Of a stretch of DNA of 64,000 nt, positions 9,118-11,200 are shown piece by piece. Source of the stretch: Candidatus Amesbacteria bacterium RIFCSPLOWO2_01_FULL_49_25 (lineage in GTDB: Bacteria > Patescibacteriota > Microgenomatia > CAZETR01 > Amesbacteraceae); contig MEXP01000020.1 in NCBI GenBank assembly GCA_001773725.1, positions 19,526 to 83,525 on the forward strand, read 5' to 3'. The position numbers and the translations under genes were made by a program. The notes under the pieces are model-generated. The model made no database searches. It saw only the letters and a program-made list of their open reading frames with translations, and was not told the DNA's origin. The stretch's first letter is position 1, and each line of letters starts with the position of its first letter.

Positions 9118-10760
9118 GTGCCAAGCAACTCAAATTTTCAGACGATGCCCGCCAGAGCCTGGTTTTGGGTGTCAACATCCTCACCAAAGCCGTGGTTACG
9201 ACCTTAGGTCCCAAAGGCCGCAATGTGGCCATCGACAAAAAGTGGGGCGCTCCGGCCGTCATCCATGACGGCGTCTCTGTAGCCAAGGAAATCGAATTAC
9301 AAGATCCCTTTGCCAACATGGGCGCGCAATTGGTCAAGCAAGCCGCCGATAAAACCAATGACGTCGCCGGCGACGGCACCACCACGGCAACAGCCCTGGC
9401 CGCAGCCATTGTTAATGCCGGAATGAAAAACATTACCGCCGGGGCCAACCCCATGGCGGTGAAAAGGGGCATCGACCAGGGAGTAGAAGCTTTAGTTGCC
9501 GAAATTAAAAAGATAAGCAAGCCCATCAAGGGCCACGACGAGATCGCCCAAGTATCCACGATCTCAGCTGGCGACGAAGAAATCGGCAAGAAAATTGCCG
9601 AGGCCCTGGACAAAGTCGGCCGTGATGGAGTAGTCACAGTCGAAGAAGGTAAAGGCCTGACCATCGACATCGAGTACAAAGAAGGTATGGAGTTTGACAA
9701 AGGCTACGCCAGTGCCTACTTCGTCACTATTCCCGAAAAAATGGAAGCCGAAGTCGACTCTCCCTATATCCTCATTACCGACAAGAAAATCTCCTCCATC
9801 CAAGACCTTCTGCCGTTTTTGGAAAGTTTTGTCAAGGTCAGCAAGAGCCTGGTGATCATTGCCGACGATGTCGAAGGCGAGGCTTTAGCCACTCTGGTCG
9901 TCAACAAACTCCGCGGTGCTTTCAATATCCTAGCCGTCAAAGCTCCCGGCTTCGGTGATCGGCGCAAGGCTATGCTCGAAGATATCGCCATTCTTACCGG
10001 CGGCACCGTAATTTCTGAGGACACCGGCCGCACATTTGAAGGCGTCAAAATTGAAGATCTTGGTCGGGCAGACAAAGTCTGGGCGGACAAAGACAATTGC
10101 CGCGTCATCGGTGGCAAAGGCGCCCCCTCCGCTCTTCAAGCTCGCATCAAGTCCCTCAAAGATGAACTGGCCCGGACCACTTCCGATTTTGACAAAGAAA
10201 AACTCGAAGAACGCCTGGCCAAGTTGAGTGGGGGAGTGGCCGTGATAAACGTCGGCGCCGCTACCGAAGTCGAACTCAATGACCGAAAGGAACGGGTTAA
10301 AGACGCCGTCGGCGCTACCAAAGCTGCCGTGGAAGAGGGGATTGTCCCCGGCGGTGAGGTCACCCTCATCAGAGCCGCTCGTGTTTTAGACGGCCTCAAG
10401 TTGGAAAATGACGAAAAAGTGGGGTTAGACATTCTTAAGTACGCTTTAGAACAGCCATTCAGATGGCTTCTCAAGAACGCCGGCCTCGATGATGGCTACT
10501 ATCTCAAGCTCGTTCAGGGCGAAAAAGCCCTCGACTTTGGCATCAATGTCGCCAACGGCCAAACCGGCAGTATGTATGGCTTTGGCATTATCGACCCCGC
10601 CAAAGTAACCAGGTCCGCCCTCCAAAACGCCGCCTCTGTCGCCACCATGATTTTGACCACCGAAGCCCTAGTGACGGAATTACCGGAGAAGAAAGAAACT
10701 TCAAGTGCCGGCAATCCCGGCATGGGCGGTATGGGTGGCGGCATGGGCGAAGACTACTAG
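9114..10760 (+). CDS. groEL: chaperonin GroEL
   Basis: 548 aa with [12 protein letters not shown]-type motifs and a C-terminal GGM repeat ([11 protein letters not shown]). Confidence 0.95.
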
Positions 10761-11200
10761 AACTTCATTCCTTCAAGCTTCTCCCGGAAATCATTCGGAA
10801 ACTGGTAGAGATCAGCCGCCGCTTCCTGTGGACTGCACCATTTGTACTCCAAGTGACCCGCATCCAAAGTAATCTTCTGGTCTTTGTTACCCAGTCGACA
10901 GACATATACCATCAAGACTAATCCCACTGTTTAGCCCTCCTCTTCAAAACTAGCATCCTGAATTATCCCACTTCCAAACGGCTTAATCGAATAAATATCT
11001 TCCAACCCCGTCTCCTCTTTGATCTTAGTTCTGATTCTGTGTTCACCTTCACTGTGGCTCAAGATTCGTCCACCGGGTATATCCCAGTCTCCGATAAAGA
11101 AAGTATGCTCACTTCTCTTGGGTTTCAACAACAACACCTTTCCATCGTCCCTCACTATTAACCCCTTAACCCCAACGTAAAAATGCCTTATTTGATTCAT
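10757..11200 (-). pseudogene. Nudix hydrolase gene interrupted by an in-frame TAA at 10931..10933 (pseudogene, or a sequencing or recoding artefact)
   Basis: The upstream part has a Nudix-box-like segment (GGRILSHSEGEHRIRTKIKEETGLED). After the TAA the same frame continues for 57 more codons (TVGLVLMVYVCRL...HLEYKWCSPQEA...), a typical Nudix C-terminus, ending at a TAG that overlaps the groEL stop. Combined length is about 146 aa. Confidence 0.55.

Follow-up and report, generated by a model that had tools for sequence, protein, structure and literature searches.

In host-restricted pathogens and in reduced genomes, it is well known that a single nonsense or frameshift mutation may give rise to a young unitary pseudogene. 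Stop codons may also be reassigned, the known cases including UGA as glycine in Gracilibacteria and Absconditabacteria and the recoding of UAG and UGA in some phages, and we know of no efficient read-through of UAA in bacteria. A literature search on pseudogenes in Amesbacteria returned no papers. The 64,000-nt stretch of DNA analysed here, referred to as the window, comes from a groundwater Candidatus Amesbacteria, a member of the Candidate Phyla Radiation (CPR).

The gene for a single-domain Nudix-fold protein described below is, with a probability of roughly 85%, a pseudogene of very recent origin, and the natural population is still polymorphic at this locus. The initial annotation had described a Nudix frame that is broken by a single in-frame TAA, runs on for 57 further sense codons to a TAG and shares the palindrome CTAG with the stop codon of groEL. 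The minus-strand layout confirms this arrangement (Table 1); the plus strand reads CTAG at 10757-10760, and the Nudix gene and groEL overlap by 4 bp. The same 4-bp overlap is found in a near-identical contig (L001, 3349-3352) and in an orthologue locus (L026, 4441-4444); the orthologue P0004 has this overlap with the groEL stop. In every related contig that covers all of groEL, this gene is whole (548 aa).

The initial annotation also assigned 147 aa to the ORF that ends at 10931. A mechanical ORF of this length does exist, the longest ORF of the frame beginning at ATG 11374, but the true start, judging from the N-termini of the orthologues and from the TATAAT hexamer 9 nt upstream, is ATG 11200 (MNQIRH...). 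With this start the truncated product has 89 residues; the ancestral full-length protein has 147 aa, by coincidence the same length as the mechanical ORF. The TATAAT is still unmutated in the window and probably acts as a promoter from which an mRNA with no leader or a very short one is transcribed. Of 63 ORFs, 21 have a hexamer resembling a -10 element no more than 30 nt (mostly 5-11 nt) before the start, compared to 6.0 ± 2.2 at random positions. A scan of 10400-11700 for full -35/-10 consensus promoters and for terminators found nothing.

Table 1. Features of the Nudix locus and its convergent neighbour, in window coordinates.
Feature	Position	Strand	Remarks
Ancestral Nudix gene	10757..11200	-	147 codons plus stop; in the window most probably a pseudogene
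N-terminal 89 codons, frame still open	10934..11200	-	GenBank OGD07411.1 (A2899_03860), hypothetical protein
Premature TAA, codon 90	10931..10933	-	Gln CAA in intact alleles
57 sense codons past the TAA	10760..10930	-	C-terminal 40% of the Nudix fold
Original Nudix TAG stop	10757..10759	-	Shares CTAG with the groEL stop
Pro27 codon CCC	11120..11122	-	Whole in the window; 1-bp deletion in related contigs
Degenerate Nudix box GGRILSHSEGEHRIRTKIKEETGL, residues 43-66	11003..11074	-	From alignments with homologues
TATAAT, -10-like hexamer	11210..11215	-	Ends 9 nt upstream of ATG 11200
GAGGAGG-N8-GTG (GTG at 10925-10927)	10925..10942	-	Candidate re-initiation site, unsupported
groEL	9114..10760	+	548 aa; TAG stop at 10758-10760; convergent neighbour

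The claim that the downstream frame encodes the C-terminal part of a Nudix domain is borne out by the Pfam NUDIX profile: the translation fused across the stop scores 36.2 bits (cut-off 21.1) and covers profile positions 4-128 of 134, versus 22.0 bits and positions 4-67 for the N-terminal half alone. An intact protein of 147 aa, P0001, aligns to the whole (100%) of the fused translation at 99% identity, and the sole difference is a glutamine at the position of the stop. The AF2 model of P0001 (pLDDT 91.6) has a predicted alpha/beta/alpha Nudix fold, and its top Foldseek matches are all Nudix enzymes (3grn, NudI, Ap4A hydrolase and RppH; probability 1.00), with TM values of 0.6-0.7 against 3grn and NudI; the profile match to 3grn has an E value of 1e-23. 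Residue 90 forms the turn of the hairpin between strands 69-87 and 90-103 in this model. By the same model of the intact allele, the 89-aa stump is without strands 90-103 and 116-122 and without helices 124-130 and 136-143. As the core of the fold would be short of two beta-strands and neither C-terminal helix would be present, we infer that the stump has no function and is unable to fold as a Nudix domain.

The Nudix box of the protein departs from the canonical GX5EX7REUXEEXGU. In GGRILSHSEGEHRIRTKIKEETGL, the glutamate of GX5E is replaced by serine and RE by Thr-Lys, and the EExGU end is retained. Alignments show that the RE glutamate is a lysine in all 6 clade members, preceded by Thr, Ser, Asn, Ala or Glu; P0006 has lost one further glutamate. 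Distant homologues keep the canonical GGRxxxGE...REhKEETG, and their names ("8-oxo-dGTP diphosphatase") are automatic annotations. Since the box of the clade is degenerate, canonical pyrophosphohydrolase chemistry seems doubtful even for the intact allele.

The orthologues P0002 to P0006 and the one on contig L032 are uninterrupted and have a sense codon (Q, L, A, S or V) at position 90, which answers the comparison proposed in the initial annotation. For both halves of the gene, pN is 0.08-0.33 and pS is saturated at roughly 0.8-1.1; because of this saturation, we contrast pN with pS instead of giving a dN/dS ratio. By this contrast, the intact family has been under long-term purifying selection across species, and this applies to the part downstream of the stop as well as to the part upstream. 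Thus, neither of the two findings that would have spoken against a disrupted gene, orthologues truncated at the same place or a downstream frame without Nudix similarity, was made. Against the GTDB representatives, the 6-sequence alignment recovered one sister-species genome only, and the window's own genome is apparently not among the species representatives of that set.

The lesion is a change of Gln90 from CAA to TAA, i.e., C>T on the coding strand (G>A at plus-strand position 10933). The contigs that encode P0001 (L001-L005) have about 99% DNA identity to the window and the same gene order. Codon 90 is CAA in these contigs and in L030, L031 and L033-L039, and TAA in the window and in L006-L015, L017, L019, L022 and L023. 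Across 10760..10930, there is no nucleotide difference between the window and the intact alleles. The 89-aa stump is found on 13 contigs and as GenBank OGD07411.1, and C-terminal ORFs of 51 aa and 56 aa have been called on dozens of contigs in ENA, JGI and Logan assemblies. The initial annotation had also offered an error of sequencing or assembly, which would account for a single-base difference between this one genome and the intact allele; however, 14 distinct contigs share the TAA, with ENA MEGAHIT assemblies, JGI assemblies, the NCBI record and the original Anantharaman scaffolds among their sources, and we consider the chance of an error to be practically nil. Because these contigs come from independent samples and assemblers, and GenBank OGD07411.1 ends at the same place, the TAA is, as far as sequence records can tell, a genuine lesion and not an assembly artefact. 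The recent nonsense mutation that the initial annotation put forward is the option that holds, as near-identical contigs have CAA at codon 90 and no other difference in the gene.

A second loss-of-function allele is present in 10 related contigs, in which the Pro27 codon has lost 1 bp and the frame is shifted. The deletion occurs together with TAA in three contigs (L019, L022 and L023) and with CAA in seven (L030, L031, L033, L034, L035, L037 and L038). Among 28 distinct related contigs, 7 are intact, 11 have TAA only (plus the window), 3 have the deletion and TAA, and 7 have the deletion and CAA, where the tallies count contigs from biased database queries and are not allele frequencies. The C/T site at 10933 and the deletion at 11120-11122 are the only variable sites in the 444-bp gene across these contigs. 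In the surrounding 5.8 kb there are 79 other variable sites, and every neighbouring gene stays full length wherever a contig spans all of it.

A distance of 189 bp separates the two lesion sites, and the blocks of SNPs on either side are shuffled among the contigs, so that the phase of the lesions is uncertain and a strain tree from these SNPs does not order the events. The four-gamete pattern may be the result of recombination, recurrent deletion or chimeric assembly, and co-existing strains may have been joined during assembly in some of the contigs classed as "intact" or "double-mutant". A pattern scan of metagenomes that spanned both lesion sites recovered a single contig, L033, which has the deletion with CAA and is chimeric beyond window position 10808.

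The initial annotation also raised programmed read-through, in which the TAA would be read through or recoded and the full-length protein would still be made. The perfectly kept downstream frame and the retained promoter-like element speak for such a mechanism. Against it, the stop is missing from the orthologues and from the sister alleles, and the population has a separate frameshift allele of the gene, which shows that the protein can be lost. All three stop codons are in use in the window, as had been claimed, with TAA, TAG and TGA ending 25, 11 and 27 of the 63 ORFs; groEL and the neighbouring genes read normally under code 11. The folding of a 111-nt segment around the stop is no stronger than that of shuffled sequences (z = +1.0), and the sole tRNA gene within the 64,000 nt is for tRNA-Cys. 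We consider programmed read-through extremely improbable. Genome-wide reassignment of TAA is rejected on the stop codon usage and because groEL and the genes around it read normally.

A further alternative is a functional split, in which translation would stop at the TAA and re-initiate at GTG 10927, and the resulting fragments of 89 aa and 56 aa would reassemble. The GTG lies 3 nt past the TAA and is preceded at a correct spacing of 8 nt by GAGGAGG, the break falls at a variable surface residue in a hairpin turn between two strands, and the 56-aa ORF is called by several gene callers. However, the Shine-Dalgarno-like bases merely encode EEEG (in EEEGQTV) and are unchanged in intact alleles, such a motif precedes only 6 of the 63 ORFs in what appears to be a genome that favours leaderless starts, and the split is conserved in no orthologue. 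Frameshift alleles that abolish the N-terminal fragment circulate as well. The unblemished TATAAT and downstream frame would fit a split gene that is still in use, but they are also expected of a very young pseudogene, and we judge the split to be very improbable. Re-initiation at this GTG, or read-through of the TAA, may still take place at a low level.

The preferred reading, a very young pseudogene, is the following. The ancestral gene encoded a 147-aa protein, one of a small clade in which the Nudix box is degenerate, and purifying selection kept it across species. In the lineage of the window, a single C>T transition converted Gln90 to a stop, so that translation ends after 89 residues and the product is short of two core strands and of both helices at the C-terminus. 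The 171 nt past the TAA are probably an untranslated remnant of coding sequence that has so far acquired no further changes. As the population also has the intact allele and the independent 1-bp deletion at codon 27, loss of the gene is tolerated, presumably because it is dispensable in this habitat or is backed up by other house-cleaning enzymes. The data show the lesion and that it is real, the intact and frameshifted alleles, the fold and the history of selection; the lack of function of the stump and the reason why the loss is tolerated are inferred. Two further house-cleaning genes that had been reported as intact, encoding a canonical Nudix protein (30632-31150) and MazG (60767-61084), are indeed whole.

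A different view of the same polymorphism is that loss is not just tolerated but advantageous in the aquifer population, with two independent loss-of-function alleles having reached appreciable frequency in parallel under positive selection. Both polymorphisms in the gene are disruptive, whereas the 79 variable sites around it spare the neighbouring genes; the deletion is mostly on the CAA background (7 contigs versus 3), suggesting independent origins; and lesion-bearing contigs outnumber intact ones by 21 to 7. On the other hand, these counts come from biased queries and do not represent allele frequencies, chimeric assembly has possibly scrambled the phase of the lesions, and plain relaxed selection on a dispensable gene would likewise predict two lesions. 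The loss has no known phenotype or link to a function, and we consider positive selection for it unlikely. If it were true, the locus would represent adaptive gene loss in progress in a bacterium with an ultra-small genome and would provide a handle on the role of this clade-specific, non-canonical Nudix protein.

Thus, the locus represents ordinary gene decay that has been caught early and is neither recoding nor a sequencing error, and it does not change our understanding of translation or of the genetic code. For annotation, the consequence is that the 89-aa "hypothetical protein" and the orphan ORF of 51-56 aa, which several pipelines call, belong as two pieces to a single disrupted Nudix gene and should be annotated as pseudogene. 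More generally, the locus is a clean, small case of the earliest stage of gene decay in an uncultivated CPR bacterium, with four allele types at about 99% identity, and it could serve population-genomic work on genome reduction in Rifle-type aquifer time series. A small Amesbacteria clade whose Nudix box is without the canonical Glu and Arg-Glu has nevertheless been conserved across species, which draws attention to the function of the intact protein.

Compared to known systems, the locus resembles read-through and codon reassignment only superficially, in that a meaningful coding sequence continues past an in-frame stop; in contrast to such systems, the Nudix stop is unconserved, TAA is a normal terminator and the window contains neither an RNA element nor a suppressor tRNA. 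As a protein, the intact product belongs to the Nudix superfamily (PF00293), with the MutT-related protein of Methanosarcina mazei (3grn) and the nucleoside triphosphatase NudI (3n77, 6dt3 and 3oga) as the nearest solved structures. Like other members of PF00293, it is a single domain of about 145 aa with a NUDIX match above threshold and a retained EExGU. Unlike canonical Nudix proteins, the Amesbacteria clade has a degenerate box, and the copy in the window ends at residue 89. The resemblance to young unitary pseudogenes of bacteria is much closer: there is one point lesion in an otherwise perfect ORF, the promoter and the downstream codons are whole, intact orthologues and alleles exist, and relatives have a second, independent lesion. 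The locus differs from those pseudogenes in that the public record lists only an 89-aa hypothetical protein with no pseudogene label, and in being a standing polymorphism, with intact, nonsense, frameshift and double alleles side by side in an uncultivated CPR population in groundwater.

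The minus-strand frame that opens at ATG 11200 (MNQIRHFYVGVKG...) meets an in-frame TAA and continues in the same frame for 57 sense codons to a TAG, bearing out the proposal of the initial annotation that a Nudix gene is interrupted here by a single stop. The 147-aa ORF of that annotation does not stand as a gene: it is a mechanical longest ORF from ATG 11374, whose first 58 codons lie antisense to the divergent DUF5674 gene and are absent from the orthologues. The gene actually starts at ATG 11200, giving a truncated product of 89 aa, which an exact-sequence look-up matched to GenBank OGD07411.1 ([quoted passage not shown]). 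The 89-aa piece scores 22.0 bits against Pfam NUDIX (profile 4-67) and the fused 147-aa translation 36.2 bits (profile 4-128 of 134), so that the downstream frame indeed supplies the C-terminal portion that the domain lacks. Since the groEL and Nudix TAG stops are offset by one base, the plus strand reads CTAG at 10757-10760, and the two convergent genes share 4 bp.

Coordinates of features in the window
Feature	Position	Strand	Remark
groEL	9114-10760	+	TAG stop at 10758-10760
Nudix gene	11200-10757	-	TAG stop at 10757-10759
In-frame TAA	10931-10933	-	
Variable site 1	10933	-	coding strand C/T, CAA or TAA
Variable site 2	11120-11122	-	1-bp deletion in CCC (Pro27), AAACCCAAG -> AAACCAAG
Degenerate Nudix box	11003-11074	-	
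TATAAT of Nudix gene	11215-11210	-	
DUF5674 gene	11246-11578	+	divergent from Nudix gene
Mechanical 410-aa ORF	11550-12782	+	
92-aa protein	11575-11853	+	without Pfam match
303-aa protein	11871-12782	+	DHH sub-threshold, 20.2 bits (cut-off 28.1)
RibD_C-domain gene	29414-29941		
DNA alkylation repair enzyme gene	29931-30635	+	PF08713
Canonical Nudix gene	30632-31150	+	intact; box GKVEPGETIEESARREFQEETG
MazG gene	60767-61084		intact

A search of a 5.8-billion-protein collection returned a 147-aa protein (P0001) whose sole difference from the fused translation is a Gln at the stop position. The next orthologues, P0002 to P0006 (84%, 72%, 70%, 63% and 54% identity), are uninterrupted in every case and carry Q, L, A, S and V there, respectively; the residue at codon 90 is variable. 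The GTDB representative of the sister species (L032; Candidatus Amesbacteria bacterium RIFCSPLOWO2_01_FULL_48_25) has an intact 148-aa gene, again with Gln. The P0004 gene likewise overlaps a convergent groEL by 4 bp, so a full-length frame terminating within the groEL stop is the ancestral structure. Between species, pN is low (0.09 vs P0002, 0.18 vs P0004 and 0.30 vs P0006) and synonymous sites are saturated (pS approximately 0.9), with a similar pattern in the N-terminal and C-terminal halves, so both were kept as coding sequence for a long time. The window and the intact allele show no further difference in the gene, including the 171 nt past the stop, so the TAA lesion is very recent.

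Related contigs were fetched and aligned to the window, yielding 28 distinct contigs at approximately 99% identity, among which just two sites vary within the 444-bp gene, the TAA itself and a 1-bp deletion. All four combinations occur: intact (L001-L005, L036, L039), TAA only (the window, L006-L015, L017), deletion plus TAA (L019, L022, L023) and deletion plus CAA (L030, L031, L033, L034, L035, L037, L038); the 46-aa and 101-aa pieces called on L030 and L031 match the frameshift expectation. The 89-aa stump is called on 13 contigs and an orphan C-terminal ORF (51 or 56 aa) on dozens. A sequencing or assembly error is rejected, as the TAA recurs across contigs from ENA, JGI, Logan and NCBI. 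It is a genuine allele, and with the separate deletion the gene has been struck at least twice in this population. The neighbouring genes (groES, groEL, DUF5674 and the 92-, 303-, 183- and 120-aa genes) have identical lengths wherever a contig covers them whole. For two Logan contigs (L036 and L039, both 813-1061), the stored call is an 82-aa piece from an internal TTG on intact DNA (CCC, CAA), a gene-calling inconsistency rather than a lesion. The 410-aa ORF is two genes, of 92 and 303 aa, in the gene calls of all related contigs.

Allele tallies depend on the choice of protein variants queried. Over a 5.8-kb stretch, 81 sites vary, in blocks shuffled among contigs. Such blocks (13695-13798, 13485-13528, 13246-13321, 11446-11478, 10700-10710 and 10607-10616, from window 8000-13800 vs L001-L031) have two haplotypes each, in nearly every combination, which may reflect homologous recombination at a high rate or else consensus contigs assembled as chimeras of strains that live together. 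The lesions lie 189 bp apart, further than the k-mer implied by "k141" contig names, so contigs scored as "intact" or "double" may in some cases be artefactual. That each lesion exists is firmly established, but the same does not hold for how they are linked or how frequent they are. The JGI contig Ga0209519_10203803 (L033) agrees with the window from 10808 onward only, and its positions 1-294, of much higher G+C by eye, match nothing in the window. It is probably a chimeric join, which would account for the aberrant C-terminus of the database protein P0007.

Might the TAA be recoded or read through? TAA terminates 25 of the 63 ORFs in the window, this stop is not conserved, the surrounding 111 nt are no more stably folded than shuffled sequence (z = +1.0), and the sole tRNA in the window is tRNA-Cys, all of which speak against this. 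A functional split, with the second piece made by re-initiation, could draw on a GTG 3 nt past the TAA and a GAGGAGG 8 nt upstream of that GTG. However, these bases are EEEG codons, unaltered in intact alleles, SD-like motifs precede just 6/63 ORFs, and the frameshift alleles, in which the N-terminal fragment is destroyed, speak further against an enzyme maintained as two pieces.

By contrast with random positions (6.0 +/- 2.2), 21/63 ORFs have a -10-like hexamer (TATAAT, TATACT or TAAAAT) no more than 30 nt, mostly 5-11 nt, upstream of the start, for example at 8800, 13429, 16165, 25188, 27059, 59029 and 60767; the TATAAT of the Nudix gene lies 9 nt ahead of its ATG. Together with the scarce SD-like motifs, this suggests that most mRNAs of this Amesbacteria genome are leaderless or have a very short leader. 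Two linked SNPs (11204 and 11208 (-), CGGCTAGAG vs CAGCTGGAG) fall within those 9 nt, on both intact and lesion-bearing alleles. GC skew over 1-64000 is uniformly negative and unusually large for a bacterial chromosome (-0.05 to -0.37 per 2 kb and for the most part near -0.25), with a monotonic cumulative curve and near-even gene strands (35 + vs 28 -); it is probably behind many long spurious antisense ORFs, such as those opposite groEL.

An AlphaFold2 model of the intact protein (56-sequence alignment; pLDDT 91.6, pTM 0.85) places residue 90 in the turn joining strands 69-87 and 90-103. Truncation removes strands 90-103 and 116-122 together with helices 124-130 and 136-143, from which we infer that the stump would be unable to form the Nudix sandwich. 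The best matches of the model and family profile are Nudix structures, headed by the M. mazei MutT-related protein 3grn and NudI. The Nudix box is canonical in the wider family (e.g., GGRIDEGESILDTLKREIKEETGI in P0013); in the clade of six to which this gene belongs it reads GGRILSHSEGEHRIRTKIKEETGL, with the GX5E glutamate changed to Ser and the RE pair to x-Lys, and P0006 has lost one EE glutamate as well. This degeneracy is clade-specific and kept across species (P0001-P0006) despite saturated synonymous divergence, and the clade's protein may be non-catalytic or mechanistically altered. In MutT mutagenesis the RE glutamate is important for catalysis, so the protein, even when intact, may fall outside the standard pyrophosphohydrolases.

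As first noted, two further Nudix/MazG-type genes in the window are intact, and these could be a source of redundancy. The canonical Nudix gene directly follows, with a 4-bp overlap, the PF08713 gene, and before it the RibD_C-domain gene, and the run may form a small DNA or nucleotide-sanitation cluster. Adaptive loss of the interrupted gene is a less likely reading, suggested by the fact that both polymorphisms in it are disruptive and common among contigs, a pattern that relaxed selection would fit as well.

The Gln in P0001 and the CAA contigs, the uninterrupted orthologues and the second lesion support the leading interpretation, also favoured initially, that the gene in the window is a young pseudogene. 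We add that the TAA segregates as a standing polymorphism and that this CPR population also carries an independent frameshift allele. The practical use lies in annotation correction and in offering population-genomic studies of genome reduction a marker locus; the event itself is of a familiar kind and of modest general interest.
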